Positions 9,308-35,456 of a DNA stretch of 64,000 nt are shown one piece after another. The notes beneath the pieces were generated by a model. It ran no database searches and was not told the DNA's origin. It saw nothing but the letters and a program-made list of their open reading frames with translations. The stretch lies in the sequence record SRR20825006_1228. The stretch is one strand, 5' to 3'. Numbering within the stretch: the stretch's first letter is position 1; the number at the start of each line of letters is the position of its first letter. The translations under genes were made by a program, and so were the position numbers.

Positions 9308-9309
9308 CG

Positions 9310-12611: not shown

Positions 12612-14006
12612 TTGAGTGAAACATTCGACAATCTTCCGCCCGTAAACTACGTGGTCAGCGAAGAAGAGTGCGCCGCACTATCCGCAGCTATTGATATCGA
12701 AGAGCTAACCCAGACCGCACTTGCCCTTGGGAACATTGATAGCCCATCCATGAGCGAGGCATCAGCTGCAGAGTTTGTGTTTGATTGGTTGCAAACAGAA
12801 GGTTTTGCACCGCGAAAAGTTGGCGCAACGCCTGAACGGCCGAATGTTATCGCGACTTATGGCGGCAAGGGTGACGGAAAGAGCCTCCTCTACACAGCCC
12901 ACCTTGATACTGAAAGTCCGACCTGGAATGCGGATCTGGACGCCCACAAGTTCCGTCCTGAAACGCTGGCGAACCCGGAATGGAACCAGTGCTGGCTGCA
13001 GGATGGGGCATTCCACGGCTACCCAATCTCGAATGATCGCGGGCCGATGGTGTGCTTCCTTATGGCCGCAAAGGCGCTGAAATCCTGCGGTATTGATCTG
13101 TCGGGACGGCTGTACCTTACCGCATCTCCCGGCGAGATCGGTCCTGAGCCGATCGAGGAGGCTCGCGGCGTACAGTATATGGGCAAGGAAATCGGCACGC
13201 ACTACGCGTTCTATCATGGCGGTGTGTCACCCGATTATGCGATCGCGGCCGAGGGGTGTGACTTCGGGTTGACGTGGGTTGCATGCGGTTATGCCGTATT
13301 CCGCATCCAGCTATTTGGCGAAGGCGTGTTCACACCACTTCTCGAAAGCCCAGAAAAGGCCGCTGATCACCCCAACCCGATCTATCGTCTCGGTGATACC
13401 ATCCAGTCGATTTTGGACTGGGGGCGCACTTATGAGCAGGAGAACATCTACACGTCGTCTGGCGGTGTGGCCAAACCCAAGACGCAAATCTCATCTGTCC
13501 GTGGTGGCGTTCCATATGCGTTCGGGGCCGGAACGGAAATTTGCTCACTCTATCTTGAAGTCGGTTTGCCGCCGCATGTAGAAATCGGGCAGGTCCATAG
13601 AAGCCTTGAGAGTCATTTGAGACGCCAAGGCATAGGTGAGTTCGGCCTGGAGCCAGTCGTGGTCCGGCACGGATTTGCTGCCGATGAAGAACGCGTGTCC
13701 CCGCTCGTTTCGGCTGTTGATGCTGCGACCCGGCATACACTGGGCGAGCCTCTGAAGCTCGCGCATCCTGTTTATTCGAGCATGTGGCGCGACCACAACG
13801 TCTTCAACATGAACCGCATTCCCGCCGTCACAACCGGCTTTCCACGCTGGCGTCCGACGCCAGAGGACATGGTCAAAAGCACTTTGATCTATGCGCTGAC
13901 CGCGCTGTCGATTTGTGGGCGTGCGCCCACATCCGAAAATAAAAAGCCGCTGAGCGGTTCCGATGTCTATGGCGACAACCCATTTTCGTCCGCTGGAGTA
14001 TCCTGA
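12612..14006 (+). CDS. M20 family (ArgE/DapE-like) metallo-amidohydrolase, atypical
   Basis: RPNVIA, YTAHLDT, ISNDRG, PGEIG and AAEG motifs, with a dimerisation-domain-sized insert. Confidence 0.8.
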   Translation: MSETFDNLPPVNYVVSEEECAALSAAIDIEELTQTALALGNIDSPSMSEASAAEFVFDWLQTEGFAPRKVGATPERPNVIATYGGKGDGKSLLYTAHLDTESPTWNADLDAHKFRPETLANPEWNQCWLQDGAFHGYPISNDRGPMVCFLMAAKALKSCGIDLSGRLYLTASPGEIGPEPIEEARGVQYMGKEIGTHYAFYHGGVSPDYAIAAEGCDFGLTWVACGYAVFRIQLFGEGVFTPLLESPEKAADHPNPIYRLGDTIQSILDWGRTYEQENIYTSSGGVAKPKTQISSVRGGVPYAFGAGTEICSLYLEVGLPPHVEIGQVHRSLESHLRRQGIGEFGLEPVVVRHGFAADEERVSPLVSAVDAATRHTLGEPLKLAHPVYSSMWRDHNVFNMNRIPAVTTGFPRWRPTPEDMVKSTLIYALTALSICGRAPTSENKKPLSGSDVYGDNPFSSAGVS

Positions 14007-14009
14007 CCC

Positions 14010-15356
14010 ATGAATGCAAGAATTCCTTTCAAGGCAGGCAGCCAATTGCTGGCAATGAGTTCGCTTGAGCTTTTGCTGGCCGCGGCGACATATTCTTCAC
14101 TCGGCGTGGTCCTCCCATTTATGGTGATGGATCTGGAATGGAGCTGGGCGCAGGCTGGGTTTGGATTTACGGTGCTCGGTGCAGTTACCGGCGTCGCGTC
14201 ATCTGTGCCGCCATTTCTCATCCGCCGGGTGGGGGTGCGGAACACAATCCTGATTGGTGGTGTTCTGGCCTGCATCGGTTTGTACCTTCTGCATGGAGTG
14301 GAGAGCCTGCCTCAGTACTATATGGCGGCAGCAATCTGCGGTTTGGCCTACCCCATGATGGCGTCCATCCCGACAACCTTCCTTGTGAGCCGACTGTTCC
14401 AGCGGCAATCGACCGCGCTCGGCGTGGCGGCGACGATCAGCGGAATAGGGACGGTGGTCGGGCCATTGATGGTACTTGGCGTATTGGCTCTTGAAGGTCA
14501 GACGTGGCGGAATTATTGGGAATATCAGGCAATCGCACTACTGGCTGCGGCTGTTTTGTGCGCGATCATCGTTGGTTTGGAGCGCAGATTCACTCGGCCC
14601 GCACGTGAGGAACTCGTCGCAGCAGAGGCTGAAGCGGCGGCACCGACCGTCATGCCTGACCAAGTCGAGCTGCCTCCGACACGGAGCAGTCGCCATATTT
14701 ACCGGACGACTGTGGACTGGACGACTAAAGCTGCGATGCGGACGACGCAGTTCAAGATTCTTGCCGCCGCATATTGCCTGAACATGATGTGCCTGGTGAC
14801 GGTAACCAGCCTCTCGGTGGGCCATTTGGTTGAGCGCGGTGTTTCCGAGACTGTTGCCGCAGGCATGTTGAGCATCGAGGCGTTGATCGCGGTTTTGATC
14901 CGGGCATTTTCCGGTGTTCTGGGGGATATCTTCGATCCCAAGCATCTTGTGAGCTTTGCGTTATTTGCGACGATGATTGGTTGCGCTGTGCTCGCGCTCA
15001 CAACAGATCATGTCATGCTGCTGTTTTACGCGGTAGGCACGGGTATTGGTTTCGGTACGACGCAGCTCGCGTGCACGGTGCTGCTGCTCAACTATTTTGG
15101 TCGCAAGTACAATCTCGAACTGTTCTCCGCCATGTGTGTCACCGGTGCGATCTCGGCGCTCGGACCTCTGATCGGAGGCGTAATCCGCGACGTTTCGGGA
15201 AGCTTCTCCCTCATCTTCATATTGCTGTCAGTTCTGTCAGCCGGCGTCTTCATGGTCGTGCTTTTCATGAAGCCGCCTTATCTTGAGGATCTGTCCTCTA
15301 CTGAAGGCGACCCAGTTGGCGACGCTGACATCAAGTACGGGCAGATGGCTGAGTAA
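14010..15356 (+). CDS. MFS transporter
   Basis: 12-TM pattern with a central loop and NYFGRK motif. Paralogous to 30791..32026. Confidence 0.88.
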   Translation: MNARIPFKAGSQLLAMSSLELLLAAATYSSLGVVLPFMVMDLEWSWAQAGFGFTVLGAVTGVASSVPPFLIRRVGVRNTILIGGVLACIGLYLLHGVESLPQYYMAAAICGLAYPMMASIPTTFLVSRLFQRQSTALGVAATISGIGTVVGPLMVLGVLALEGQTWRNYWEYQAIALLAAAVLCAIIVGLERRFTRPAREELVAAEAEAAAPTVMPDQVELPPTRSSRHIYRTTVDWTTKAAMRTTQFKILAAAYCLNMMCLVTVTSLSVGHLVERGVSETVAAGMLSIEALIAVLIRAFSGVLGDIFDPKHLVSFALFATMIGCAVLALTTDHVMLLFYAVGTGIGFGTTQLACTVLLLNYFGRKYNLELFSAMCVTGAISALGPLIGGVIRDVSGSFSLIFILLSVLSAGVFMVVLFMKPPYLEDLSSTEGDPVGDADIKYGQMAE

Positions 15357-15418
15357 TCTCAATAAGCTGACCAGCTTCGATCAAGCCTCGATTTCAATTT
15401 CCTCCGATGGAGTCTGCC

Positions 15419-16486
15419 ATGCCGTCAGATCGCGTACCCAATTTGGCCAGTCAAAAGTCAGTTTCGCCGAAAACAACCTGGACTAAGTGGCTGAGGCCAG
15501 ATCCGTACGCACTTGTGCTGCTGTCCGTGGTAGTTACGGCGAGCATTTTGCCATGTCGTGGAGATGCGGCGGTCGGCTTCGAGTGGTTGACCAAAGTAGC
15601 CATATTCCTGTTGTTCTTCATGCACGGTGCAAAGCTGTCTCGCGCAGCCATCCTCGGGGGTATTGGTGCCTGGAGACTCCACACACTCGTTCTGATGAGC
15701 ACCTTTCTTCTGTTTCCGGCGCTCGGTCTGCTAGTGAGCACACTGCCTAATTCTCTGGTGAGCCCTACAGTCAAGATGGGTTTCCTGTTCCTCACCATAT
15801 TGCCCTCCACGGTCCAGTCCTCGATCGCATTCACCTCCATGGCCAGAGGAAATGTAGCAGCAGCAGTTTGCACGGCATCACTGTCGAACATGCTTGGCGT
15901 GTTCATCACGCCGCTTCTGGCGGGCCTCCTGATGCGGTCTGAGCTTCAGTCGGGTGGGGGAGATCTGTTGGGGGTGATGCAGTCCATCATATTGACCCTG
16001 CTGGCCCCCTTCCTTGTCGGCCATCTCAGCAGGCCCCTCATCGGCGCATGGATTGACCGGAACAAGGGCGTTCTTTCAAAGCTCGATCGTGGCGCGATCC
16101 TGCTCGTTGTCTACACTGCATTCAGCGCGGCCGTCGTAGATGGAATTTGGTTGCGCGTATCGGGATTTGATATTGTTACGATCCTCTTCCTGAGCGCACT
16201 GGTGCTCTCAGTGGTGTTGTTCCTGACGCGCAAGGCGGCGCAAGTGGCCAGGCTGAACAAGTCGGACGAGATCACCTTGGTCATGTGCGGATCGAAGAAG
16301 AGTCTCGCAAGCGGTGTACCGATGGCTGCGGCATTGTTTGCCCCAGCCCAAGTTGGCGTCATCATACTGCCCTTGATGATATTCCATCAGATGCAGTTGA
16401 TCGTATGCGCCATGATCGCGCGGAGCTATGGCGAGCGGACTGAAATACCCGAAGAGACAGAGGTGCTTGGCGGGGCGAGCGCCTAG
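15419..16486 (+). CDS. Bile acid:sodium symporter-like (SBF-like/YfeH-type) transporter
   Basis: LFFMHGAKLS, LPSTVQSSIAFTSMARGNV, CGSKKSLASGVPMA and PLMIFHQMQL. The start was chosen from GGAG at 15409. Confidence 0.9.
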   Translation: MPSDRVPNLASQKSVSPKTTWTKWLRPDPYALVLLSVVVTASILPCRGDAAVGFEWLTKVAIFLLFFMHGAKLSRAAILGGIGAWRLHTLVLMSTFLLFPALGLLVSTLPNSLVSPTVKMGFLFLTILPSTVQSSIAFTSMARGNVAAAVCTASLSNMLGVFITPLLAGLLMRSELQSGGGDLLGVMQSIILTLLAPFLVGHLSRPLIGAWIDRNKGVLSKLDRGAILLVVYTAFSAAVVDGIWLRVSGFDIVTILFLSALVLSVVLFLTRKAAQVARLNKSDEITLVMCGSKKSLASGVPMAAALFAPAQVGVIILPLMIFHQMQLIVCAMIARSYGERTEIPEETEVLGGASA

Positions 16487-17304
16487 CCGAACTGAAAAGC
16501 CGATACGGTCGAGTTCATGACATTGTCTGAAAAGACTTTCCGGCCTGTCTCGTCATGGCCCGCGCCAGCTGCGACCATGAGTGGAAGCAAGTGCTCTTCC
16601 CGAGGATGCGAGTTCCGGCCCTGAGGTGCGTCCAGCCATCGGCTGAGCTTGACCCAGCGTTCTTCAAGATCACCTGTTTCGAGGACATCTGTCAGCCATG
16701 CGTCGAATTCAGCAGACGGTGCGGTGGCCATGGGTGTCCGGAAGGCGCGCATATTATGATAGCTCATGCCGCTGCCGATGATGAGGACGCCTTCTTCTCT
16801 CAATTGGCTGATTGCCTTGCCGACCTTCAGATGTTTTTCCGGAGAGAGGTCGCGGGTGAGTGACAGGGTCAATATCGGAATGTCGGCATCAGGGAATGCA
16901 ACCAATAGCGGCACGAACACGCCATGATCATAGCCCCGGGAACTTTTCAAGGGCGCATCAAGGCCTTGCTCCACCATCAATTCCTGAACGCGATTTGCGA
17001 GATCCGGTGCGCCCGGAGCAGGATAGTTGAGCTCATAAGTGTGAGCCGGAAACCCGGAATAGTCGTAAATCATGTCTGGCGAGGCGGCCGTGGAGACGGT
17101 GAACTCCTGTTCCTCCCAATGGGCTGATACAACCAAAAGGGCTTTTGGTTTCTCGGGCAGGCTGGATGGTATGCTTTTCAGCCATTCGGCTGTCTTGTCC
17201 CACGTATCGACCGGTCCGCCCATCAGCGTCCAGTCCATGAAAAAGCATGGGCCACCTCCATGTGGAATGAACAGGGTGGGCATTTTCGTGGAGGAAGCAG
17301 TCAT
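16483..17304 (-). CDS. Class III extradiol ring-cleavage dioxygenase (DODA/YgiD/LigB family)
   Basis: FIPHGGGP, SAHW, YDYSGFP, DHG, GSGMSYHN and HPREEHLLPL. Confidence 0.92.
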   Translation of the reverse strand: MTASSTKMPTLFIPHGGGPCFFMDWTLMGGPVDTWDKTAEWLKSIPSSLPEKPKALLVVSAHWEEQEFTVSTAASPDMIYDYSGFPAHTYELNYPAPGAPDLANRVQELMVEQGLDAPLKSSRGYDHGVFVPLLVAFPDADIPILTLSLTRDLSPEKHLKVGKAISQLREEGVLIIGSGMSYHNMRAFRTPMATAPSAEFDAWLTDVLETGDLEERWVKLSRWLDAPQGRNSHPREEHLLPLMVAAGAGHDETGRKVFSDNVMNSTVSAFQFG

Positions 17305-17378: not shown

Positions 17379-17443
17379 CCGCAAACTTGTCCGCGCCGGG
17401 GCCAATCATGTGTGAGCTCGAAACCAGTGCCGCAACTAGTTGG

Positions 17444-17458
17444 GCGCATATGAACAAG
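17444..17458 (+). promoter_or_regulatory. Candidate cluster-regulon box (GCGC-N7-CAAG)
   Basis: GCGCATATGAACAAG, 61 nt upstream of the formamidase-family ATG. Confidence 0.6.
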
Positions 17459-17519
17459 ACCAAATAGCGGGCTTGAACTCTGATCCAACCGGTAGGCGAT
17501 TTGGTTCAAGGAGTAAGTT

Positions 17520-18611
17520 ATGGCGTTGGTGGAAGAGACACGAACAAGCAAGATCAAGGTTCAGCCGGAAAATCTGCACCATTTGAAAGCGACACCGGAA
17601 ACCGTGCACTGGGGATACTTCCACCCCAACATCAAGCCAGCGCTCCGCGTTAAAAGTGGCGATCTCATTCAGGCTGAAGCGATCACGCACCATGCCGGGG
17701 ATGCTCCGGAACTGATGATGGATGAAACTGTCAAGGCAATCTGGGAGGGTGTTCAACCCGAAGATCGTGCGCCGGGTGTCCATATCATGACCGGTCCGAT
17801 CTATGTAGAAGGTGCCGAACCAGGTGACATGCTGGAAGTGCGCTACTTCCGTATGGTTCCCCGCTGCAATTACGGATCCAACCTCGCTGCGAACTGGGGC
17901 CACCTCTATCAGGAGTTCGATGAGAAGGAGCGCGTGACGATCTATGAGCTTGATCCGAATGCGAACACGGCTCACGCGCTCTATGCCTATGATTTCGAAG
18001 GAAAATATCTGATCCCCGGGACCATTACACATTGTCCTGAGTGTGACCGCGAACCTGCTTTGGTTGGCGTCCGCGTGCCGGCAAGGCCGCATTTGGGAAC
18101 TGCGGGAGTCGCGCCCGCCATTGACGAGCGTGTCAGCACAATTCCACCGGGCCTGCATGGGGGAAACATCGATAACTGGCGCATCGGAGCCGGCGCCACG
18201 ATGTATTATCCTGTGCAGGTGAAGGGCGGGCTGTTTTCGATCGGTGACCCCCATGTCAGCCAGGGCGATGGTGAGATCAGCGGCACGGCAATTGAAGCTT
18301 CACTCGACGTGCTGTTCCAGATCGTACTCCGAAAGGACTTCAAGTTTCCTTCGCCGCTTCTTGAAACCCCGGATCACTGGATTGTCCATGGGTTTGACGA
18401 AGACCTGAACCAGGCAATGAAGAATGCCTCATTGGACATGCTTCATCTGCTCACTGAGCATCAGGAGCTTAGTCGAAATGATGCCTATTCTCTGATGAGT
18501 GTCGCGACCGATTTTGGGGTCACCCAAGTCGTGGACGGCACGCAAGGAATTCACGTCAAGATTGACCGTGGCATCTTCCCTGAAAAAGGTGTTGTCAAAG
18601 ATATCGACTAG
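17520..18611 (+). CDS. Acetamidase/formamidase (FmdA/AmdA) family protein
   Basis: TVHWGYF, HIMTGPIYVEGAEPGD, PPGLHGGNID and GDPHVSQGDGEISGTAIE. Confidence 0.92.
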   Translation: MALVEETRTSKIKVQPENLHHLKATPETVHWGYFHPNIKPALRVKSGDLIQAEAITHHAGDAPELMMDETVKAIWEGVQPEDRAPGVHIMTGPIYVEGAEPGDMLEVRYFRMVPRCNYGSNLAANWGHLYQEFDEKERVTIYELDPNANTAHALYAYDFEGKYLIPGTITHCPECDREPALVGVRVPARPHLGTAGVAPAIDERVSTIPPGLHGGNIDNWRIGAGATMYYPVQVKGGLFSIGDPHVSQGDGEISGTAIEASLDVLFQIVLRKDFKFPSPLLETPDHWIVHGFDEDLNQAMKNASLDMLHLLTEHQELSRNDAYSLMSVATDFGVTQVVDGTQGIHVKIDRGIFPEKGVVKDID

Positions 18612-21144: not shown

Positions 21145-21202
21145 TTTGAGCGCGATGTTCTCCCGATGTTTCCCTTAAAATGGCTGCCGGGAAACATGTT
21201 GT

Positions 21203-21217
21203 GCGCGCAGAGACAAG
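21203..21217 (+). promoter_or_regulatory. Candidate cluster-regulon box (GCGC-N7-CAAG)
   Basis: GCGCGCAGAGACAAG, 56 nt upstream of the Rieske gene ATG. Confidence 0.6.
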
Positions 21218-21273
21218 AATGTGCACGCTGTGAATGACAGATTGAAGCTGACAGAAGCAGGAAGGACCGGACA

Positions 21274-27143: not shown

Positions 27144-27181
27144 GAATTCCGATGCCTTCACTACTGTCGGAAAGAATTTGT

Positions 27182-27196
27182 GTGACACCGGGCAAG
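27182..27196 (+). promoter_or_regulatory. Degenerate cluster-regulon box (GTGA-N7-CAAG)
   Basis: The CAAGAC half is conserved. The site is 68 nt upstream of the likely ATG at 27265. Confidence 0.35.
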
Positions 27197-27264
27197 ACCG
27201 CTTCACTCTTTCATTCTAGCATCTCCAGGATGCAAAACCCCGTAAACCGAGTTTGGAGATCATC

Positions 27265-28344
27265 ATGAGCACGATGGAAACATGTGAGCCTGTCACCAGC
27301 GCCGCTGCGTGGAGGGGTGACCAGATCAAGGCGGGCGAAGATTGGATCTACCATTTGTCTCCGGTTCAGATCGCAGAGCTTGAGGATCTGGGTGCAAAGT
27401 TCGTCGAAGACGACCCAGACTTGCGGTTCGTTCAAGCCTCTGAATATCCGCTGAAAGCATGTGCCGACGCGATCGCGGAATGGGGAAGTGATGTAGATAC
27501 AGGTCGCGGGTTTGTGCTCGTTCGTGGATTGAGAACACATCTCTACTCGGACGCACTTTCATCTGCGATCTATTACATTCTCGGCCTGCATATGGGTGAT
27601 CCGATCCGACAAAACGAGATGGGCGACCTGCTGGATCACATTTATGCAACCTCCGACAAGACGATGGATGACCCAACCGCGCTGTCGTCCAAGGTTCGTG
27701 ACAAGCTGGTCTTCCACTCCGACAGTTCGGATGTCGTGGCCCTGATGTGCTTGAGGCCTGCAAAAGCCGGGGGGGCATCCTGCCTTGTTTCGGGCGCCGA
27801 AATTTATAATGAGATCTTGCGACGCCGGCCGGACCTGGCGCCGCTTCTGCTTGAGCCATTCCACTGGGACTGGCGCCGGCAAGACCACAATGCGCCAGCG
27901 AACACTTATACCTCGCCGATCATCAGCATCGAAGAAGGCGTGTTCAGCATGTATGCGGGCTCGTTGTACATTCTGACGGCTCAGGATTATCCCGGCGTCC
28001 CGCAGTTGAGCGACGCGCAGAAAGAGGTGCTGGAGCTGTTTGACGAGATCACATATGAACCTGGCATGGCCATCGAGATGGATTTCCGCCCCGGTGATAT
28101 TCAGTGGCTCTCCAACTATGGCGCTTTGCATTCTCGAACCGAATTTTTCGATTTCCCGGAACCACAACGCAAGCGTCACCTTTTGCGGCTCTGGCTGAGC
28201 CGGGATGCAGGACGACCTGTCGTCGAAGGATTTGGAAAGAATGGAGTTGTCCAGGTTCGCGAAAAGCCGCGCGAGGGTGCAGACGATGACAATGCGGGGA
28301 AATTCAAGATTGCGGACGCCGCTGTTCCACGAATGATATCCTGA
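27265..28344 (+). CDS. TauD/TfdA (clavaminate synthase-like) Fe(II)/2-oxoglutarate dioxygenase
   Basis: GRGFVLVRGL, FHSDSSDVVALMC, PGDIQWLSN...LHSR and RHLLRLWL. The start was chosen from the GGAG SD. Confidence 0.9.
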   Translation: MSTMETCEPVTSAAAWRGDQIKAGEDWIYHLSPVQIAELEDLGAKFVEDDPDLRFVQASEYPLKACADAIAEWGSDVDTGRGFVLVRGLRTHLYSDALSSAIYYILGLHMGDPIRQNEMGDLLDHIYATSDKTMDDPTALSSKVRDKLVFHSDSSDVVALMCLRPAKAGGASCLVSGAEIYNEILRRRPDLAPLLLEPFHWDWRRQDHNAPANTYTSPIISIEEGVFSMYAGSLYILTAQDYPGVPQLSDAQKEVLELFDEITYEPGMAIEMDFRPGDIQWLSNYGALHSRTEFFDFPEPQRKRHLLRLWLSRDAGRPVVEGFGKNGVVQVREKPREGADDDNAGKFKIADAAVPRMIS

Positions 28345-28400: not shown

Positions 28401-28721
28401 ATGCCGCAACTACGCATCGTCAAAAGATCCGGAGAAGAAGCAATCATCGACGCAACCGCTGGACATAGTGTGATGGAAGCCATCACCAATTCGGGCGTAG
28501 AGGACATTGCTGCGATTTGCGGAGGAGCATGCGCGTGCGCGACCTGTCACGTGTATGTGGCGGAAGAATATGGCGAGCTTGCCGGTGCCGCTTCGGAATC
28601 CGAGCGAGAATTGCTGGACTTTTCAGATAATGCACGCCCGCAATCGCGGCTATCTTGCCAGATCATCATCACCGAGGCCTTGGCAGGTTTGCGAGTGGAA
28701 GTGGCGCCGGAAGAAGATTGA
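28401..28721 (+). CDS. [2Fe-2S] ferredoxin (adrenodoxin/putidaredoxin type)
   Basis: CGGACACATCHVYV and SRLSCQI. Confidence 0.95.
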   Translation: MPQLRIVKRSGEEAIIDATAGHSVMEAITNSGVEDIAAICGGACACATCHVYVAEEYGELAGAASESERELLDFSDNARPQSRLSCQIIITEALAGLRVEVAPEED

Positions 28722-28727: not shown

Positions 28728-28773
28728 GCGCTCTGAAGCGAGCCGATCAATAGTTGAGGCGCGAACAGTCAAG
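28728..28773 (+). promoter_or_regulatory. Two tandem cluster-regulon boxes
   Basis: GCGC-TCTGAAG-CGAG (28728-28742) and GCGC-GAACAGT-CAAG (28759-28773), 31 nt apart. The second lies 54 nt before the LLM gene ATG. Confidence 0.6.
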
Positions 28774-28827
28774 AATGCTGGGTAAATGTCGGGTGATATT
28801 CCAGTCAGGAAATGAGGGAAGTGAAGC

Positions 28828-29946
28828 ATGTCTCAGCAACTGGTGCCAACAAAATTCGATCTGCCGTCCGACGTTGGAGGCAAGGATCTTGGCATCTTTA
28901 TGCCAATTGCGAATGGCGGATGGATTTTGTCGAAGAACAAGCCAGAGCTTGATGGGTCGTATGCCTACAATCGCCAGGTGGCGGTTCTTGCAGAGAAGCA
29001 TGGATATGATTTCATAATGTCTATGGCAAAGTATCGCGGCTATGGTGGTGAAACCGAGCACTGGAATTCAACGCTTGATGCGACCGTGACAATGGCTGCA
29101 CTCGCGGAGGTGACTGAGCGGGTGAAGGTCTGGACGACGGTTCATACCATTCTTCAGAATCCGGGCACCGTGGCCAAGATGATTGCAACGTTGGACCAGG
29201 TCACCAAAGGCCGAGCCGGCCTGAATGTTGTGACCGGTGCCTACAAGGGCGAGTTCTCGCAAATGGGTATGTGGCCGGAAGGTGTCGATCACGACGCCCG
29301 GTACGATCTCGCCAAGGAATGGATTCAGGCGATCAAGGCCCTTTGGACCCAGCCATCGGTGACGATGCAGGGGGATTATTTTCAATTGGAGGACTGTGTG
29401 TCCAACCCCAAACCATCGACCAAGCCTTTCTTGGTTTGTGCCGGTTCGTCGGAAGTGGGCATGCGCTTCAGCGCCAATGAAATGGACGCCATTTTTCTCT
29501 CCGGCGATGTACCTGAAAAGCTGGCGCAGTCGAGTAACAAGGTAAAGGGCATAGCGGCTGATATGGGGCGTTACATCCGCACATATGCCATGCAGACTAT
29601 CGTGCTGGGCGAGACCGACGCGGAAGCCGAGGCGACCGCCCTGCATTACCGGGAAGGCTTGGATGAAGAAGCCTTACGCGGAATGATGCGTGCTTACGGC
29701 TTTCTCGACGCAGAGATTGGCGAGGAGAATGCTTTCGTGAAAAAGGCACGCTCATCCTTTATGGCACCTCATGTGGCTGGCTCACCAGACACTGTTATCC
29801 AGAAAATCGGTGAGTTGCTGGAAGTTTCGGGAATTGATGGGCTCATGCTGATCTTCCCGGACTATATTTCTGCCATGCCTCTGTTTGCTGAACACGTTAT
29901 GCCGAAATTGCGGGCGAAGTTTCCTGCGCTTGCCGGGGCCGCGTAG
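28828..29946 (+). CDS. Luciferase-like flavin monooxygenase, RutA (pyrimidine monooxygenase)-like
   Basis: GIFMPIANGGWILS, SMAKYRGYGGETEHW, GLNVVTG, QMGMWP and CAGSSEVGM resemble E. coli RutA segments. Confidence 0.88.
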   Translation: MSQQLVPTKFDLPSDVGGKDLGIFMPIANGGWILSKNKPELDGSYAYNRQVAVLAEKHGYDFIMSMAKYRGYGGETEHWNSTLDATVTMAALAEVTERVKVWTTVHTILQNPGTVAKMIATLDQVTKGRAGLNVVTGAYKGEFSQMGMWPEGVDHDARYDLAKEWIQAIKALWTQPSVTMQGDYFQLEDCVSNPKPSTKPFLVCAGSSEVGMRFSANEMDAIFLSGDVPEKLAQSSNKVKGIAADMGRYIRTYAMQTIVLGETDAEAEATALHYREGLDEEALRGMMRAYGFLDAEIGEENAFVKKARSSFMAPHVAGSPDTVIQKIGELLEVSGIDGLMLIFPDYISAMPLFAEHVMPKLRAKFPALAGAA

Positions 29947-30624
29947 ATGACGTCGTCGCTTTCTGTTGATGCGCTTCCGCATGTCGATCCAACCCTCTTG
30001 AAGGGGATCATTGCGCCAGCGCGAACAGCTCTTTTGCTGATTGATGTGCAGGTTGACTTCGTATCGCCGGATGGCGTGATCGGAATGGCGGGCGTTGATA
30101 TGTCCGGTATCAACTCTGCCATCGACAAGATGGAAACATTGCGTGCTGTAGCCAAGGTGCAAGGAGCAGCTGTAGCTTTCGTCCGAGTGGTTACGCGGGA
30201 GGAAACAGATTCCTCCGCCCTCAAGAATCTATATGCCCGGCGCGGACGTCCTGGCCAGCATGCTATCTGCCGTGCAGACGAGCCAGGTTCCGACTATTAT
30301 CGACTGTTCCCGGAGGACGGAGACATCGAGATTGAGAAAGTCTTGTTTGATGGCTTCCATGGAACGGATCTGGAGGAGCAGTTGCGCGCACGTGAAATCG
30401 ACACAGTATTGGTCGCGGGCGTGACGACTGATTGCTGCGTGGACCAGACCGCGCGCTCGGCGTTCCATCGAAATTTCAACGTGATAGTGGTGTCTGATGC
30501 ATGCGCGGCTTATGAAGATGCGCTGCACGCCGGGGGGTTGTTGGCGCTCGAAAAGAACTGCGCTTTGCTGGCAGATACTAAGTCGGTTCTTTCTGCTTGG
30601 AGCGGTATTTCGGACGAGGCCTGA
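29947..30624 (+). CDS. Isochorismatase-family cysteine hydrolase (RutB-like position)
   Basis: ALLLIDVQVDF, K in IEK and GVTTDCCV give an Asp-Lys-Cys triad. It is directly adjacent to the LLM gene. Confidence 0.9.
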   Translation: MTSSLSVDALPHVDPTLLKGIIAPARTALLLIDVQVDFVSPDGVIGMAGVDMSGINSAIDKMETLRAVAKVQGAAVAFVRVVTREETDSSALKNLYARRGRPGQHAICRADEPGSDYYRLFPEDGDIEIEKVLFDGFHGTDLEEQLRAREIDTVLVAGVTTDCCVDQTARSAFHRNFNVIVVSDACAAYEDALHAGGLLALEKNCALLADTKSVLSAWSGISDEA

Positions 30625-30790: not shown

Positions 30791-32026
30791 ATGTATCGAA
30801 AATGGATAATCTTTGCGGTTGTCGTTGCCGGCTTTTTTGTCTTGAATGCGAGTACATTTGCTTCTCTTGGGGTCGTTTTGTTCGTCATGGCGGATGACCT
30901 CGGTTGGTCTTACACGTCCGCTGGTTTGAGTTTCACGATTCTGGGGTTGGCCGTGGGTTTGACCAGCTTCCTGCCAGCCATCCTGTTGCAGCGGATCGGC
31001 GCGCGCCTGACTTTCTGTTTCGGGTTTTTCTGCGTCGCCTTGGGTTTTGGGCTGGCCAGCGCCAGCCAGGGGCTTGGCATGTTCTTCGCGGCAATGTGCC
31101 TTGCGGGTGCCGGATTCTCTCTGGCCGGGAACGTCACGGCCGTCTGGCTGATCGGTGAATGGTTTCCGGAGCATACTGGCCGCATGATTGGTCTCTATCT
31201 CATGCTCGGAGGAATTGGAGACATTATGGGTCCCAGCCTCAGCCACTACATGATGGAATGGACAAATTGGCGTTTCAATTGGATGCTGCTGGCTGTCATC
31301 TGCGGCGTTCTCATCCTTGTTGGTGGAGCATTCATCACAGAGCGCCGAGACGTATCCGGAGGCGAGGCGAGGACTGACAACTCGCGCGGGCCCGACGATG
31401 CAAAGGAAGTCGACGGGGCTATTCCATCCTGGAGAGTGGCTATCGGACGGCCTCTGTTTCTGATCATAGCGGCCGCCATCACGTTCAATCTCGCCTGCGT
31501 TACGACGGTGCATTCCATTGCTGTGAGCCACTTGAAGCTTCTTGGCCTGTCTCCAGTTGTCGGGGCCTTGGGGCTCAGCTTCATGGCGTTCGTATCGCTC
31601 GCGTTCAAAGGACTGGCGGGTCCGCTCTGTGAGCGGTTCTCGTCCCGCCACATGTTGGCATTGAGTATGGCGCTGCAGGCTGTCGGGGTCGTCATGTTTG
31701 CTGTCGCGACCAACCCGGCCCTTGTTCTGGTGTCATCACTAATGTTTGGTGCTGGCTGGGGTATCACTGTTGTCGCAACCATGGTTCTGCTTGTGGACTG
31801 CTTTGGGCGGGTAATTGGTGCACAATTGCTAGGCGCGGCTCACCAGATTTCGTCTATTGCTGCCTTTGGCCCGTTGGCAGCTGGAATGGCAGCTGACAAA
31901 ATCGGATCGTTCGCGCCCGTCTTCTTTGCGTTCGCGGTGGCCCTTGGTGTGCTGGCTTTGATTATACAGGTTCTTCGCGACCCTGGAATGTTGAAGCCTT
32001 CTCAGGCGTTCACTCGACCGGTTTAG
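30791..32026 (+). CDS. MFS transporter
   Basis: 12-TM pattern. ASTFASLGVVLFVMADDLGWS resembles the N-terminus of 14010..15356. Confidence 0.88.
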   Translation: MYRKWIIFAVVVAGFFVLNASTFASLGVVLFVMADDLGWSYTSAGLSFTILGLAVGLTSFLPAILLQRIGARLTFCFGFFCVALGFGLASASQGLGMFFAAMCLAGAGFSLAGNVTAVWLIGEWFPEHTGRMIGLYLMLGGIGDIMGPSLSHYMMEWTNWRFNWMLLAVICGVLILVGGAFITERRDVSGGEARTDNSRGPDDAKEVDGAIPSWRVAIGRPLFLIIAAAITFNLACVTTVHSIAVSHLKLLGLSPVVGALGLSFMAFVSLAFKGLAGPLCERFSSRHMLALSMALQAVGVVMFAVATNPALVLVSSLMFGAGWGITVVATMVLLVDCFGRVIGAQLLGAAHQISSIAAFGPLAAGMAADKIGSFAPVFFAFAVALGVLALIIQVLRDPGMLKPSQAFTRPV

Positions 32027-32151
32027 AATGCGGCAAGAATAACCATTGTTCGATCATTTTGCACGACCTGTCCAGCGAGGTGGTGGGCTGTGTTTGTGGG
32101 TGTAGAGAATAGGTGTTAAGTGCCAATTTTAAAGAGTTTTCAATTATTTTG

Positions 32152-32166
32152 GCGCTGGAAATCAAG
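32152..32166 (+). promoter_or_regulatory. Candidate cluster-regulon box (GCGC-N7-CAAG)
   Basis: GCGCTGGAAATCAAG, 72 nt upstream of the TBDR ATG at 32239. Confidence 0.55.
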
Positions 32167-32238
32167 TCAGACCCAAAACCCGGACATAGCGTAGGGTATC
32201 GCAAATTCTGTGATTTCTGCAGCTTGAGGGATAATGTC

Positions 32239-34536
32239 ATGGGTCGGAACAAAAAAATCATTTTGAAGTATAGCGTCGCATGTGCGGCAATGAGTTTGGC
32301 CCTTATTCAGGGTGGAAGCGCGTTTGCGGACGATGCTGCTGGTGATGACGATTCGGTTCGCAATATGAACCAAATTACCGTTTACGGAGAAAAGCGCGAA
32401 ACTACTCTCCAGGATGCGCCGATCGCATTGAGCGCGATCACGAGTGATATTCTTGACCAGGCTGGCATTACGGACCCCAGCCAATTGAATGGCTATGTGC
32501 CTGGCTTGATGATCACCAAGAGTGGTGGGTCCGAGCGCATCGTGACAATCCGGGGAGTGGGTCAGCAGACGCCAGAAAACTTTGCAACTATTCCGGGCGT
32601 CTCCTTTCACGTAGATGGTGCGTTCCTGCCGAATTCAATCGCGTTGAATATGGGCTTTTTCGACGTTGACCGCATTGAGGTTCTGAGAGGTCCGCAAGGC
32701 ACTGTGTTCGGGCAAAGCTCAACGGGCGGATCAATCAACATTATCACCAAGCAGCCAACCCTTGATGAGTACAAGGGCACCTTCAAGGCAACGCTCGGCG
32801 ACTACAATTACGTTCAAGGGTTTGCGTCTTACAACGTCCCCATAGGTGAAACGGCAGCTATTCGTGGCTCCATTCAGCAAACGTCCCATGATGGCTATGC
32901 GACTGCCACCAGTGTAGATGGCGGATATGAGCTCGATGATGCCGACAATGAGCACTATCGCATCGCGGGGCTTTGGGAGCCGACAGACAAGCTGTCCACG
33001 ACGCTTTCCTATACGCTCTACAATGACAAGCATAATGGTGGTGCCTTGAAGAATCTCGAGGATCCAAACCCCGACATTCGAGAGCTAACACAGGACTTCC
33101 CCGCCAAGTTCAAACTGCGTTCAGAGTTGGCGACGTTGAACGTTGCTTATGAACTGCCGTTCGCGACACTCAAGTCGGTGACAAGCTATCAAGATCTGAC
33201 GCACGACCAGTCATTCGATGCTGATCGGTTGGATATTGCGACATATGGTGGATATGACCATGTTGCGACTTGGGCGACAGATGCCGAGACCTTCATGGAA
33301 GAGTTGACGATTAGCTCACTGCCGGAGGCCCCAATTGACTGGATCGCGGGTGTTTTTTACTCTAACACAGATTCCGCTCAATACGTGGTCGAGTATCGTG
33401 AGTTGGGGGTCACCTCCATTCCGCCTCTACCTGTACTTCCGAAGGATACGCCTCAATCGGCAATCCCGGGTAATCTGGCTTATGAAAACATCTCCTCGGT
33501 GAACCGGGAATCCATCGCCCCATTCTTTCAGGCGACGGTGCCAATCATGGCAAATCTGAACGCCACCATCGGCGCTCGCTACAATGATGATAAATATGAG
33601 GGCGAAGGCGCTTCCTATTACTCAACTCCCACTCAGAGCTCTTTCGATACCCAGACTTGGACTGGGAAAGTCGGGCTGGACTATGATCTTTCCGAAGACT
33701 CCATGCTGTATGCGAGCTGGTCGCGAGGGTACAAACCGGGCGGCCTGAACGGCGGCTCTTCTGGTGCATTGACCGTGTCCACGACCTATGATGAAGAAGT
33801 CGTCGAGGCGATTGAGTTCGGTTCGAAGAATACTTTCCTGGATGGGCGCGCGACACTGAACGCTTCCATCTTCTTCAACCAGTATGAAAACATGCAGTTC
33901 ATTGAAGAGGATCCGATCCCTTATTCGGGTGGCATCGGGAATATTCCTGAAGCGGAGACTTATGGTCTGGAACTCGAAGGTAGCTATCTGGCATTTGATG
34001 ACCAGCTGATGCTTGGCGGTAATATGGCTTTGCTGGACGGCGAAGTTACAGCGGACTACGAAGCGTTGGATCGTCGTTTGGCGGATATCGCTGCTGCGTC
34101 GGCCGAGGCGACCGGTACGATTTATCCTTGGACCTTCGATTGGTTCCTGGCGCGCCAATCCGCTGCGGTGCAAGTCAATGGCAACACGCCACCAAATCTG
34201 GCTGACTTGACGTATAATCTGTATGCCGCTTGGTTCCAGCCGATTGGCGATCATGGAGAGCTCACGTCTCGGATCGAGAATGTGTATGTGGGTGAATACG
34301 AAGCTCGTATCTTTAATACGGACGGAGCCGATGATGTATCTTCCTACAGCCTCTGGAATGCCTATTTCCAATACAAGCCGAATGAGGGTCCGTGGTACGT
34401 TTCTGCTTCTGTGACAAACATCGCGGATGAAGAAGGGGTGTCTGGCCGGTTTGTGGATCCATACTCCAGCGGAACGGTTAGTAATGAGTATGTGCCACCG
34501 CGCCAGCTGCTCGTTACGTTTGGCTTCGAATTCTGA
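32239..34536 (+). CDS. TonB-dependent receptor
   Basis: Signal peptide, TonB-box-like QITVYGEKR, plug motif RIEVLRGPQGTVFG, GYKPGG and C-terminal F. Confidence 0.95.
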   Translation: MGRNKKIILKYSVACAAMSLALIQGGSAFADDAAGDDDSVRNMNQITVYGEKRETTLQDAPIALSAITSDILDQAGITDPSQLNGYVPGLMITKSGGSERIVTIRGVGQQTPENFATIPGVSFHVDGAFLPNSIALNMGFFDVDRIEVLRGPQGTVFGQSSTGGSINIITKQPTLDEYKGTFKATLGDYNYVQGFASYNVPIGETAAIRGSIQQTSHDGYATATSVDGGYELDDADNEHYRIAGLWEPTDKLSTTLSYTLYNDKHNGGALKNLEDPNPDIRELTQDFPAKFKLRSELATLNVAYELPFATLKSVTSYQDLTHDQSFDADRLDIATYGGYDHVATWATDAETFMEELTISSLPEAPIDWIAGVFYSNTDSAQYVVEYRELGVTSIPPLPVLPKDTPQSAIPGNLAYENISSVNRESIAPFFQATVPIMANLNATIGARYNDDKYEGEGASYYSTPTQSSFDTQTWTGKVGLDYDLSEDSMLYASWSRGYKPGGLNGGSSGALTVSTTYDEEVVEAIEFGSKNTFLDGRATLNASIFFNQYENMQFIEEDPIPYSGGIGNIPEAETYGLELEGSYLAFDDQLMLGGNMALLDGEVTADYEALDRRLADIAAASAEATGTIYPWTFDWFLARQSAAVQVNGNTPPNLADLTYNLYAAWFQPIGDHGELTSRIENVYVGEYEARIFNTDGADDVSSYSLWNAYFQYKPNEGPWYVSASVTNIADEEGVSGRFVDPYSSGTVSNEYVPPRQLLVTFGFEF

Positions 34537-34574
34537 TCCAGACACTGTGCTAATCGAAACGAAAGGTAAATGAC

Positions 34575-35456
34575 GTGTCAGACTTTGACGGTGACAAGGA
34601 CTATAGCAGTTTTACGGCCAAACGGGTGACACCCTATCTTGGCGCAGAACTTGAGGGCATAGACTTGACGAAGCCCTTGTCACCGATTCAGGCTGATGAA
34701 CTACGCGATGCGCTGGCCCGGTTTCAGGTGATATTTTTCCGGGACCAGCCCATCAGCCATGATGCCCATAAGGATCTGGGGCGGCTGTTTGGGCCGTTGG
34801 CTATCCATTCGGCGGTTGCGGGGATTGATGGGCACCCGGAGATCGTCGCCATTCATGCGGATGCGGATTCCAAATATGTTGCCGGCGAAGGGTGGCATTC
34901 TGACCTGAGCGCTGATGAGGCGCCGCCGCTGGGAAGCATTCTCTACTTGCATACGATCCCGGAAACGGGCGGAGACACAATGTTCTCCAGCATGTACAAG
35001 GCCTATGATGCGCTGTCTGATCGGATGAAGGCTTATCTCGAAGGGCTTGAAGCGGTACATGATGCCAATCCGGTTTATCATGCTCTGTTCAAGGACTATG
35101 ATAAGAGGTACCCGGTTGCGACGCATCCGGTTATCCGCACCCACCCTGTCACCGGAAAGAAGTGTATTTTCGTCAATTCGTCTTACACGACCCGGATCGA
35201 GGGAATTCCTTCAGAGGAAAGTGATGCGCTTCTCAAGTTTCTGTTTGACCATGTCAAGAACCCGAACTTTCAGGTGCGGTTTCAGTGGCAACCACACTCG
35301 ATCGCTTTCTGGGACAATCGTGCCGTTCAGCATCTGGCGGTGTGGGATTATTTTCCAGAGGTTCGGTCCGGCTACAGGGTGACAATAGCCGGCGACAAAC
35401 CATTCAGCGGCACACTTCAAAATCGAAAACTGGAGACAGTTGCAGCAACTGTTTGA
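34575..35456 (+). CDS. TauD/TfdA-family Fe(II)/2-oxoglutarate dioxygenase (taurine dioxygenase-like)
   Basis: GAELEGIDL, VIFFRDQ, WHSD, GGDTMF, HPVIRTHP, FWDNRAVQH and RxxxR. Confidence 0.93.
   Translation: MSDFDGDKDYSSFTAKRVTPYLGAELEGIDLTKPLSPIQADELRDALARFQVIFFRDQPISHDAHKDLGRLFGPLAIHSAVAGIDGHPEIVAIHADADSKYVAGEGWHSDLSADEAPPLGSILYLHTIPETGGDTMFSSMYKAYDALSDRMKAYLEGLEAVHDANPVYHALFKDYDKRYPVATHPVIRTHPVTGKKCIFVNSSYTTRIEGIPSEESDALLKFLFDHVKNPNFQVRFQWQPHSIAFWDNRAVQHLAVWDYFPEVRSGYRVTIAGDKPFSGTLQNRKLETVAATV

Follow-up and report, generated by a model that had tools for sequence, protein, structure and literature searches.

Positions 12612–35456 of a 64,000-nucleotide stretch of DNA from sequence record SRR20825006_1228 (this whole stretch is referred to here as the window) carry 19 genes that form an orphan, widely conserved and modular catabolic system, composed of known enzyme families and an apparently undescribed fusion of an AraC-type regulator with an amidase domain. 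We propose, at a probability of roughly 0.6, that the 19 genes make up a single catabolic regulon of several operons under AraC control, which degrades an aromatic or heteroaromatic nitrogen compound with a lactam ring, probably carrying an N-linked pentityl or pentosyl group. The initial annotation of this DNA, made from the sequence alone, had described the region as a catabolic cluster whose combination of genes it did not recognise as a described pathway. Consistent with this, and as judged by family scores, none of the 19 proteins is closely orthologous to an enzyme of characterised pathway or substrate, and no description of the cluster was found in the literature searched, subscription-only papers lying outside that set. 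New relative to that annotation are the AraC–FmdA fusion, the relation of the M20 protein to the aryl-amine aminohydrolase NaaA rather than to a peptidase-type deacylase, and the modular make-up of the locus.

All 19 open reading frames (ORFs) are uninterrupted; 18 lie on the plus strand and the LigB gene alone on the minus strand (Table 1). Families were assigned with Pfam and NCBIfam, the closest structures were taken from the Protein Data Bank (PDB), and clusters of related sequences also came from the ESM-Atlas. Pfam and NCBIfam bore out the previously listed transporters (one TonB-dependent receptor, three major facilitator superfamily (MFS) carriers and one SBF-like transporter) as well as the five oxygenases (Rieske, RutA-like luciferase-family flavin monooxygenase (LLM), two of the TauD family and one DODA-type). 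The ribokinase, short-chain dehydrogenase/reductase (SDR), vicinal oxygen chelate (VOC) and ferredoxin families were recovered too, with the kinase falling below the ribokinase cut-off. None of the 19 proteins reached the NCBIfam equivalog cut-off of a characterised enzyme, and the kinase, TauD, RutA-like, RutB-like, FmdA-like and GbcA-like proteins all scored below the curated values.

We scanned an alignment of the Rieske protein over one genome per GTDB species, which yielded 548 relatives among 600 matched stretches, and examined the best 80 of the 548 (66–99% identical) together with 10 kb on either side where the contig allowed. The 19 window proteins and four flank proteins were mapped onto these loci by tblastn and ORF-level BLASTP, and all ORFs of the loci were clustered. 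The scan placed the window in Hyphomonas, with 99% identity to Hyphomonas sp. L-53-1-40 and 95–96% identity to four further Hyphomonas/Hyphomonadaceae genomes. At the other 75 loci, found in Novosphingobium, Sphingomonas, Caulobacter, Phenylobacterium, Brevundimonas, Asticcacaulis, Acetobacteraceae, Thalassovita, Woeseiaceae, Variovorax, Verticiella and others, the Rieske protein is 66–75% identical to that of the window. The family counts in Table 1 are lower bounds, because several loci lie on short contigs (for example L008, L032, L071 and L075; 3–6 kb). In the window, more than 10 kb separates the Rieske gene from the TonB-dependent receptor, TauD and the downstream flank, which were thus out of range in the five Hyphomonas loci; TauD membership rests on orthologues (56–69% identity) inside the clusters of other genera. 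Of the flank genes, the resistance-nodulation-division (RND) genes recur in 3, the aminotransferase in 0, TauE in 1 and the second TonB-dependent receptor in 4 of the 80 loci. By these counts, the clustering of the families exceeds chance, in that dozens of the 80 species keep them within 10 kb and do not keep the flank genes. The genes are therefore co-conserved across genera in shuffled order, and the earlier view of the region as one functional catabolic unit held up on this co-conservation and on an element common to four promoters.

Gene order varies while membership is kept, and four architecture types were distinguished. Type I is the window arrangement (Hyphomonas). Type II (Novosphingobium, Sphingomonas, Acetobacteraceae) lacks the M20 gene and runs in the order TauDl, MFS, TauD, TRZ/ATZ amidohydrolase, (AtzE-family amidase), LigB, MFS2, kinase, Fmd1, VOC, Rieske, fusion, SDR, LLM, isochorismatase-like hydrolase, (TRZ/ATZ), MFS, (TonB-dependent receptor). 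Type III (Caulobacter, Phenylobacterium) comprises three units, TonB-dependent receptor–MFS–LLM'–isochorismatase–M20–flavin reductase–TauD, TauD'–SDR–VOC and Rieske–LigB'–Fmd1–AraC; the kinase is additionally present in Phenylobacterium. In type IV (Woeseiaceae and some Sphingomonas), Rieske–LigB'–AraC persists, hydantoinase/oxoprolinase A/B stands in place of Fmd, and further members are an AMP-ligase, a cupin, an HpcH aldolase and an IclR regulator. A minimal set occurs in Brevundimonas (L006), where the Rieske, ferredoxin and Pyr_redox_2 reductase genes are consecutive and are accompanied by TauDl, the fusion, Fmd1 and SBF. Sub-operons are retained throughout: LLM and the isochorismatase-like gene are adjacent in 27 loci, Rieske and LigB' in 35, LigB' and Fmd1 in 30, and Fmd1 and AraC in 30. 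The kinase occurs in all four types (Hyphomonas, Novosphingobium, Phenylobacterium, Woeseiaceae and others). An aminohydrolase always lies near the LLM–isochorismatase pair, the NaaA-like M20 enzyme in types I and III and a TRZ/ATZ protein in type II (12 loci), which we read as non-orthologous displacement of one step. Further partners are a RutF-like flavin reductase in 8 loci, an AtzE-family amidase in 6 (472 bits, above the cut-off of 461) and, in L038, an allophanate hydrolase; judged by family, these ureido-processing enzymes and reductases of other genera fit the scheme proposed below. As separate observations, in four Burkholderiales loci of Variovorax and Verticiella (L039, L054, L066, L080) the MFS and TonB-dependent carriers give way to a Dpp/Opp-type ABC transporter, which is embedded between the Rieske and TauD genes, and one of the Variovorax loci also encodes a Tsx-like nucleoside channel (L066, 8811–9593). 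Locus L008, labelled Actinobacteria bacterium 21-64-8, is a 6.2-kb contig of a metagenome-assembled genome (MAG) with VOC–Rieske–fusion–SDR in Novosphingobium-type order and 73% Rieske identity; the bin is probably mislabelled, or else the fragment was acquired by transfer.

The regulator–amidase fusion was not apparent in the initial annotation, which had listed four C–N hydrolase domains and two related AraC regulators. All of these families and domains were found, but the M20 protein is without a Pfam match, and because positions 18811–21144 are a single uninterrupted frame, one regulator and one 'formamidase' are the same gene. In the fusion protein, AraC_binding_2 and HTH_18 (residues 42–306) are followed by a linker and an FmdA_AmdA domain (approximately 370–777), which leaves the helix-turn-helix (HTH) domain (residues 226–306) internal. 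With the stand-alone AraC protein the fusion shares 38% identity in its N-terminal part, and with Fmd1 35% in its C-terminal part. In the two regulators the double-HTH domain scored 73.7 and 76.4 bits with HTH_18 and 49.7 and 56.1 bits with HTH_AraC, and both are FeaR-like (122 bits, and 110 bits for the stand-alone protein), below the cut-off of 199. Full-length fusions (768–833 aa) were present in 25 of the 80 loci, an unfused copy of the same Fmd subtype was seen in none of the 80, and in type II loci the fusion is the only regulator. A database comparison listed at least 120 relatives (61–100% identity, 744–802 aa) from Sphingomonas, Novosphingobium, Sphingobium, Altererythrobacter, Asticcacaulis and Hyphococcus, and all 120 listed carry both HTH_18 and FmdA_AmdA; those that bear a name are annotated as 'acetamidase/formamidase family protein', 'AraC family transcriptional regulator', 'acetamidase/formamidase/AraC-like DNA-binding protein' and 'AraC family with acetamidase/formamidase activity'. 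Alignment of Fmd1 orthologues with the fused domains showed 99 columns that are invariant and identical, many of them His, Asp or Glu, and 28 more that are invariant yet different between the two groups, which points to a fused domain under enzyme-like constraint with a specificity of its own. From its spread, its full length and its role as sole regulator in type II loci, we read the fusion as functional, and we suggest that its amidase domain may sense a small amide or act on it as a 'trigger enzyme'. No account of an AraC–FmdA arrangement turned up in the literature, formamidase and acetamidase terms included, although no search was aimed at the fusion itself.

The genes of the cluster also appear to be linked by a bipartite DNA element. 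The pattern TTG-N12/13-CAAGA[AC][CT], searched on both strands of the 64-kb window, gave exactly four matches, all on the plus strand and 74–80 nt 5′ of Fmd1, Rieske, TauDl and LLM, in the four longest plus-strand intergenic regions. The three promoters flagged earlier (17444, 21203 and 28759) all carry it, and the site at 27178 adds a fourth. In alignments of the upstream regions of five Hyphomonas species, the element blocks stand out as conserved islands. Across the 80 loci (1.52 Mb) there were 46 matches, 26 of which sit 30–160 nt 5′ of one of the cluster genes; of the 24 found outside Hyphomonas, 6 are placed 77–128 nt 5′ of Fmd1, Rieske or the kinase. The latter come from five loci, before Fmd1 in L006, L046 and L061 (77–79 nt), before Rieske in L032 and L058 and before the kinase in L058, and the sources are Brevundimonas (L006), Sphingomonas (L046), an Acetobacteraceae MAG (L061), Asticcacaulis and an unclassified Pseudomonadota MAG. 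The 8-mer CAAGAATG was found 8 times in the window (shuffle mean 3.09), three times in plus-strand intergenic DNA before M20, Rieske and LLM, and at M20 its distance to the upstream TTG is unlike that at the other sites; a degenerate 10-mer around the motif remained at chance level (3 found, 2.6 expected). A palindromic reading of the element was rejected, as a consistent inverted repeat is absent from the four window sites. Scans for sigma-70 promoters (15 versus 11.4±2.7 and 19 versus 17.3±4.0) and for intrinsic terminators (5 versus 4.4 and 4 versus 5.6) were at chance. Taken together, the sites suggest that the cluster is probably co-regulated through the shared element.

Table 1. Genes and predicted DNA elements of the cluster, with the number of loci, among the 80 examined, in which each family was found.
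Feature	Position	Strand	Loci (of 80)	Remark
Exact 8-mer CAAGAATG, possible element variant	12544–12551	+		68 nt before M20 start
M20-superfamily aminohydrolase, NaaA-like (464 aa)	12612–14006	+	28	no Pfam match; PDB relative NaaA
MFS transporter 1 (MFS1), monocarboxylate/oxalate-formate-antiporter-like	14010–15356	+	50 (MFS1/3)	MFS_1 94 bits
SBF_like (DUF4137) transporter	15407–16486	+	8	PF13593 322 bits
LigB-superfamily extradiol dioxygenase, DODA/YgiD-like	16483–17304	−	62 (LigB-type)	PF02900 116.5 bits
Shared promoter/operator element (predicted)	17440–17461	+		80 nt before Fmd1 start
Acetamidase/formamidase-family amidase Fmd1 (363 aa)	17520–18611	+	60–61	PF03069 120.2 bits
AraC-type regulator fused to second FmdA/AmdA domain (777 aa)	18811–21144	+	25	one open frame
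Shared promoter/operator element (predicted)	21199–21220	+		75 nt before Rieske start
Rieske non-haem-iron oxygenase alpha subunit	21274–22479	+		Rieske and Ring_hydroxyl_A
AraC-family regulator, FeaR-like N-terminal domain (345 aa)	22494–23531	+	50–51	HTH_18, AraC_binding_2
Small single-domain VOC/glyoxalase-fold protein (163 aa)	23592–24083	+	48–49	Glyoxalase_6 and Glyoxalase, ~27 bits each
MFS transporter 2 (MFS2)	24008–25375	+	23	MFS_1 145 bits
PfkB sugar kinase, ribokinase-like	25372–26310	+	28	PfkB 177 bits
Classical SDR oxidoreductase	26307–27143	+	53–56	adh_short 166 bits
Shared promoter/operator element (predicted)	27178–27199	+		75 nt before TauDl start
Divergent TauD/TfdA-family Fe(II)/2-oxoglutarate hydroxylase TauDl	27253–28344	+	13–14	PF02668 99 bits
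2Fe-2S ferredoxin	28401–28721	+	5–6	Fer2; ISC-type ferredoxin 59 bits
Shared promoter/operator element (predicted)	28754–28776	+		74 nt before LLM start
RutA-like luciferase-family flavin monooxygenase LLM	28828–29946	+	39–40	Bac_luciferase 195 bits
Isochorismatase-like cysteine hydrolase (predicted amidase, 225 aa)	29947–30624	+	29–35	PF00857 132 bits
MFS transporter 3 (MFS3)	30791–32026	+	50 (MFS1/3)	MFS_1 143 bits; same family as MFS1 (27% identity)
TonB-dependent receptor	32113–34536	+		Plug and beta-barrel
TauD-like Fe(II)/2-oxoglutarate dioxygenase	34575–35456	+	52 (TauD family)	PF02668 245 bits

The enzymes of the cluster resemble characterised families at a distance. The M20-like protein had no Pfam match at E≤0.001 and only 36.5 bits to ArgE/DapE in NCBIfam, and its ESM-Atlas clusters are named 'peptidase M20'; its sole PDB relative is the 5-nitroanthranilate aminohydrolase NaaA (5k8p; 272 bits, residues 30–439). 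Orthologues are 61–99% identical with His, Asp and Glu positions conserved in 28 sequences, and the NaaA-like family is rare (at E≤1e-30, 1.84 billion representatives yielded 73 clusters). The window LigB scored 149.2 bits with the 4,5-DOPA-extradiol-dioxygenase family, below the cut-off of 233, and 168 and 126 bits with DODA (plant/bacterial) and YgiD in the PDB; a Caulobacter LigB' protein (L036, 11143–12012) is above that equivalog cut-off at 346.9 bits. Both amidase domains met the Pfam FmdA_AmdA cut-off of 27 (90.9 bits for the fusion), and both stayed below the FmdA equivalog NF045496 (Fmd1 75.4 and fusion 47.4 bits against 500). Fmd1 orthologues are 73–100% identical, among the highest values of the cluster proteins, and the closest PDB entry, 3b9t (271 bits), is of unknown function.

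In the Rieske protein, C91/H93/C110/H113 and D208/H211/H216 (DxxHxxxxH) are invariant in 23 sequences, and no beta-subunit gene was found nearby. It scored 129.6 bits with GbcA (cut-off 670), and its best PDB match is CntA (118 bits by sequence, 145 by profile), to which only residues 22–225 of 401 align, with the profile as well. TauDl keeps HxD...H in 13 sequences, matched a PDB 'predicted hydroxylase' (7n7v, 138 bits) and FrbJ (119 bits) and had no match to taurine dioxygenase NF007104; its orthologues are 73–98% identical. TauD scored 274.2 bits with NF007104 (cut-off 313) and 232 and 206 bits with E. coli TauD and RdpA in the PDB, and H94/D96/H253 are conserved, with orthologues at 35 of the 80 loci outside Hyphomonas. 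LLM scored 280.7 bits with RutA TIGR03612 (cut-off 498.3) and 237 bits with RutA in the PDB; its second-best family is SfnG (177 bits), and the riboflavin lyase RcaE (5w48) aligned over residues 34–291 with 74.5 bits. For the isochorismatase-like protein, BiuH (90.9 against 370 bits) and RutB TIGR03614 (79.3 against 377.95 bits) both fell below their cut-offs, the PDB relatives were a cysteine hydrolase (87 bits), biuret hydrolase (69 bits) and RutB (54 bits), and the Asp33, Lys131 and Cys163/164 positions of an Asp-Lys-Cys triad are conserved in 43 sequences. The kinase was below both ribokinase equivalogs (TIGR02152, 258 against 299.65 bits; PRK11142, 220.6 against 341 bits), and the SDR was above the cut-off of the PRK06180 subfamily (330 against 298 bits). 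Catalytic-type residues are kept in all families checked, including the His/Asp/Glu sets of LigB.

Among the uptake genes, MFS1 comes closest in NCBIfam to the L-lactate MFS transporter (71 bits), followed by the oxalate/formate antiport family (45 bits), with scores far below the cut-off, and MFS2 scored 127 bits with the L-lactate MFS transporter (cut-off 320). MFS2 lies beside the kinase in 10 loci; its longest ORF overlaps the VOC gene by 76 nt (24008–24083), and its true start is probably 3′ of 24008, because the orthologue in L001 starts at residue 8. The SBF_like gene adjoins TauDl in Brevundimonas, Sandaracinobacter and Asticcacaulis. The TonB-dependent receptor scored 118.5 bits with a siderophore-receptor subfamily (cut-off 223.5); homologues with 22–41% identity occur in 10 of the 80 loci (6 at 34–41%), and 19 loci carry another family of these receptors. 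VOC orthologues are 58–98% identical, and an informative PDB relative was not found. The ferredoxin is a likely electron donor to the Rieske oxygenase.

From the family assignments, the co-location of the genes and the shared DNA element, we infer every chemical step of a general scheme in which the lactam ring of the substrate would be uracil- or pyridone-like. The compound would enter through the TonB-dependent receptor and the MFS and SBF carriers. The Rieske oxygenase, of the three-component type with the ferredoxin, and the 2-oxoglutarate hydroxylases would then hydroxylate N-adjacent, ring or methyl carbons, such that the N-alkyl group leaves as an aldose that is captured by the ribokinase-like kinase. 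Presence of the kinase in four architecture types, together with the absence of a nucleoside hydrolase or phosphorylase among the 19 proteins (Pfam, NCBIfam), suggests that an aldopentose is set free by oxidation of an N-pentityl or N-pentosyl substituent. The RutA-like monooxygenase would open the lactam ring, the adjoining cysteine hydrolase would remove the ureido or amide fragment, and the NaaA-like enzyme would hydrolytically replace the ring-bound ortho-amino group. NaaA acts on a substrate of the ortho-amino-carboxylate type, which is what RutA-type cleavage followed by ureido hydrolysis would leave; the recurring triad of RutA-like enzyme, cysteine hydrolase and aryl-amine aminohydrolase is what dismantling a uracil-like ring fused to another aromatic ring would need. 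The remaining ring would be re-aromatised and cleaved by the SDR and LigB/DODA, possibly helped by the VOC protein, and the two FmdA-family amidases would free the last nitrogen from a small amide of the formyl, oxamic or oxamide type. The stand-alone AraC protein and the fusion, its amidase domain sensing the small amide or acting as a 'trigger enzyme', may drive the promoters through the bipartite element.

Several points weigh against this scheme. Support for its steps comes from sequence. The window encodes no reductase for the Rieske oxygenase and ferredoxin, no flavin reductase for LLM and no obvious lower pathway (aldolase, hydratase and aldehyde dehydrogenase are absent). For the catalytic half of the Rieske protein, relatives of known function were not detected, so that either N-dealkylation or ring dihydroxylation would fit it, and the kinase, besides its score below the ribokinase cut-off, is absent from Caulobacter loci. 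The modules are separable, as in the minimal set of Brevundimonas and in Woeseiaceae without Fmd, so that 'one substrate' may be too simple. A second-order Markov simulation gave a mean of 1.28 element matches per window against the 4 found, a count that is no independent test because the pattern was derived from these sites; moreover, the strict pattern, by which alone regulon membership of type II and III loci was judged, fails in most of them. The modified nucleoside or base, or flavin- or pteridine-like compound, proposed as substrate in the initial annotation fares less well than the catabolic unit itself: nucleoside hydrolases and phosphorylases are lacking among the 19 proteins, the kinase is only ribokinase-like, and in several genomes the carriers look to be of monocarboxylate or peptide type.

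More specific or different substrates were also considered. One possibility, which we regard as unlikely, is that riboflavin, lumichrome or a ribityl-lumazine is degraded by the route of Stadtman's 'Pseudomonas RF'. The LLM, isochorismatase-like and NaaA-like enzymes would dismantle the uracil-like C ring to urea and CO2, the Rieske or a TauD-type hydroxylase would oxidise the ribityl C1′ to give ribose for the kinase, TauD' and the SDR would oxidise a methyl group, LigB would cleave a dimethyl-catechol ring, and the two FmdA amidases would hydrolyse oxamide and oxamate. Were this so, which we consider improbable, the locus and several hundred relatives in Caulobacterales, Sphingomonadales and Hyphomonadaceae would be the genes of this 1960s riboflavin route, with the C ring attacked first, ribose removed oxidatively and dimethyl-pyrone and oxamide formed thereafter; the fusion could then, at similarly long odds, be a new kind of transcription factor, an AraC protein with an apparently catalytically intact amidase domain that senses a small-amide end product. 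Opening of a fused uracil ring leaves an ortho-amino-carboxylate, the substrate type of NaaA, and a ribokinase-like gene recurs in 28 of the 80 loci. In the published account, the 'Pseudomonas RF' route degrades the C ring first, removes ribose later and forms urea and oxalamide, and that source states that no enzymes of earlier microbial riboflavin routes, including this one, had been purified (PMC12746152). In the Nocardioides route, whose logic the cluster enzymes would parallel, LumH opens the ring, LumI (24 kDa) serves as ureido hydrolase and LumM (52 kDa) as imidamide hydrolase, and a Rieske and an extradiol dioxygenase take part as well (PMC12746152); a commentary notes that oxamic acid is released (PMC12752717). 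By size and reaction type, the 225-aa cysteine hydrolase might correspond to LumI and the 464-aa NaaA-like protein to LumM. To identify LumM among NaaA-like proteins, the 66 near-full-length proteins among 150 matches listed from the 1.84 billion representatives were filtered by published extinction coefficient and mass and 10 were looked up, without a match among these. RibF (FAD synthetase/riboflavin kinase) edges three Woeseiaceae loci (L025, 20080–21126; L074, 19902–20846; and L048), at most a weak flavin hint because it comes from one lineage. However, LLM does not resemble RcaE (74.5 bits), the 19 proteins include neither a P450 nor a TPP enzyme nor a member of the xanthine-oxidase family (Pfam, NCBIfam), the window has no FMN riboswitch, the Brevundimonas and Woeseiaceae versions lack the C-ring module, and neither the monocarboxylate-type MFS carriers nor the Dpp-type ABC transporters of Variovorax and Verticiella suggest flavin uptake. 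That the cluster is orthologous to Lum of Nocardioides or Rca of Microbacterium is unsupported where a comparison can be made, given this LLM and the absence of counterparts of P450 LumU, TPP-dependent LumKL and xanthine-oxidase-like LumJ.

Pyridine or pyridone catabolism, acting on nicotinamide-derived ribosides, pyridone carboxamides, mimosine-type hydroxypyridones or picolinate and nicotinate analogues, seems rather unlikely. There, the Rieske, TauD and LLM enzymes would hydroxylate the ring, extradiol cleavage would give an N-formyl product that Fmd1 deformylates, the isochorismatase-like enzyme would deamidate, and ribose would pass to the kinase. The nicotinate pathway pairs NicX, NicD and NicF, which the extradiol dioxygenase and the formamidase- and isochorismatase-type hydrolases of the window mirror; the isochorismatase-like protein weakly matches nicotinamidase (38 bits in NCBIfam, 46 in the PDB), LigB' and Fmd1 are adjacent in 30 loci, and monocarboxylate-type MFS carriers would suit a ring carboxylate. 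Yet the isochorismatase-like gene is coupled to LLM (27 loci) and not to LigB or Fmd1, maleate isomerase and molybdenum hydroxylase are absent among the 19 proteins, and the NaaA-like enzyme and three 2-oxoglutarate/Rieske oxygenases would be left without a role. The homarine (hom) operon, described with FAD/TgnAB-like enzymes (PMC13236597), was rejected as a relative, the terms Rieske, formamidase, luciferase, amidase and AraC being absent from that paper. A non-heterocyclic aromatic amine, amide or amino-acid derivative (DOPA/tyramine-type or N-acyl aromatic), also an unlikely substrate, would be deacylated by Fmd1, hydroxylated or dealkylated by the Rieske and TauD' enzymes and cleaved as a catechol by DODA, with the LLM/isochorismatase/M20 operon a separate nitrogen-scavenging neighbour. 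The FeaR-like character of both regulators (122 and 110 bits) speaks for it, as do the Caulobacter LigB' above the 4,5-DOPA-dioxygenase cut-off (347 versus 233), the HpcH/HpaI aldolase, AMP-ligase and cupin of Woeseiaceae loci, the peptide/opine-type ABC transporter embedded in Variovorax loci and the Rieske–LigB'–Fmd1–AraC core without the LLM module in several Caulobacter species. But the FeaR similarity is below cut-off, the LLM promoter has the same element as those of Rieske and Fmd1, and the LLM module lies within 10 kb of Rieske in 39–40 of 80 species and in three architectures. Last, scavenging of organosulfur compounds, in which the TauD-type enzymes and an SsuD/SfnG-like LLM would free sulfite from sulfonates or sulfate esters, is very improbable: although TauD is close to taurine dioxygenase (274 bits; 232 to E. 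coli TauD), SfnG is the second-best family of LLM (177 bits) and a TauE sulfite exporter lies just downstream (36826–37887), LLM is nearer to RutA and always paired with an amidase, the cluster has four C–N hydrolase domains and no sulfonate ABC transporter inside, and TauE recurs in 1 of 80 loci.

The borders of the cluster were read from its neighbours. A complete RND efflux operon (OEP, HlyD_D23 adaptor and AcrB-type pump; 6765–12438) lies directly upstream in the window and adjoins the cluster only there and in L001; the left border was set at M20, since a Coq4-like gene lies 5′ of M20 in Hyphomonas loci L002–L004. Downstream, on the opposite strand, are an aminotransferase, the TauE exporter and another TonB-dependent receptor. 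A genomic-island origin was rejected: the window has no tRNA, and GC content runs on without a break across both ends of the cluster. A search of the window with Rfam, including the FMN riboswitch, gave no match at the gathering threshold. Elsewhere in the window, which as a whole is rich in nutrient-scavenging outer-membrane systems, a minus-strand unit of an ANTAR regulator adjoining an ABC transporter with an NMT1/phosphonate-binding-type periplasmic protein (40752–44542) resembles, at the Pfam level, a NasT-type nitrate/nitrite uptake unit, and two more TonB-dependent receptors lie near PhoD phosphatase, PHP-domain and PepSY_TM proteins (46476–56474). An error-prone polymerase cassette on the minus strand (56493–62790) encodes a DnaE2-like DNA polymerase III alpha subunit (1182 aa) and, upstream of it, a Y-family protein with IMS domains that is ImuB-like; ImuA could be represented by a 194-aa ORF that has no Pfam match. 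GC reaches 0.656 at 60001–62000, inside the cassette region. At 3967–6249 lies a 760-aa EAL protein (c-di-GMP phosphodiesterase type) with a long N-terminal part that has no Pfam match.

The cluster occurs in abundant aquatic, marine and rhizosphere Alphaproteobacteria, and identifying its substrate would assign a function to about 20 protein families, several of them without a characterised close relative, and would reveal how nitrogen is recycled from a heterocycle, which might be a vitamin or signal (riboflavin or lumichrome, for instance). Because four promoters share an element, they offer a direct reporter assay for substrate screening, and the AraC–amidase fusion a ready-made test case for enzyme-coupled control of transcription.

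Compared with known systems, the cluster combines recognisable parts in a different setting. Like RutA and RutB, the RutA-like LLM gene and the isochorismatase-like gene are neighbours (in 27 loci; in the window, the stop of the first abuts the start of the second, 29946/29947). A flavin reductase is absent from the window and joins the pair in 8 of 80 loci, all of other genera. However, RutA and RutB scores are far below cut-off (280.7 versus 498.3 and 79.3 versus 378), RutC, RutD, RutE and RutG are absent, and the window pair sits in a much larger oxygenase/amidase cluster beside an NaaA-like aminohydrolase. The Rieske protein is similar to the alpha-only, C–N-cleaving CntA/GbcA/Stc2 group in length (~400 aa), in the lack of a beta gene and in its best PDB (CntA) and NCBIfam (GbcA) matches, whereas its substrate-binding half is unrelated by sequence and its partner is a ferredoxin encoded separately, joined in L006 by a Pyr_redox_2 reductase, rather than a fused reductase of the CntB/GbcB type. 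The match to NaaA is nearly full-length (272 bits), but its context lacks nitro-aromatic pathway partners. With riboflavin and lumichrome catabolism (RcaA–E of M. maritypicum and Lum of N. simplex), the proposed logic of the window would share ring opening, ureido hydrolysis, deamination, Rieske oxygenation, extradiol cleavage and a ribokinase for ribose, while the families differ where they can be compared, the window LLM being RutA-like and its Rieske protein without a beta subunit. Both FmdA_AmdA domains resemble the FmdA/AmdA formamidase–acetamidase family and both are far below the FmdA equivalog cut-off, and one is joined to a complete AraC regulator. Fusions of enzymes and regulators are known as 'trigger enzymes', and AraC regulators with enzyme-like sensor domains include GbdR/FtrA and Ada; in contrast to these, the enzyme domain in the window lies C-terminal to the HTH domain and is added to a normal N-terminal AraC ligand domain.

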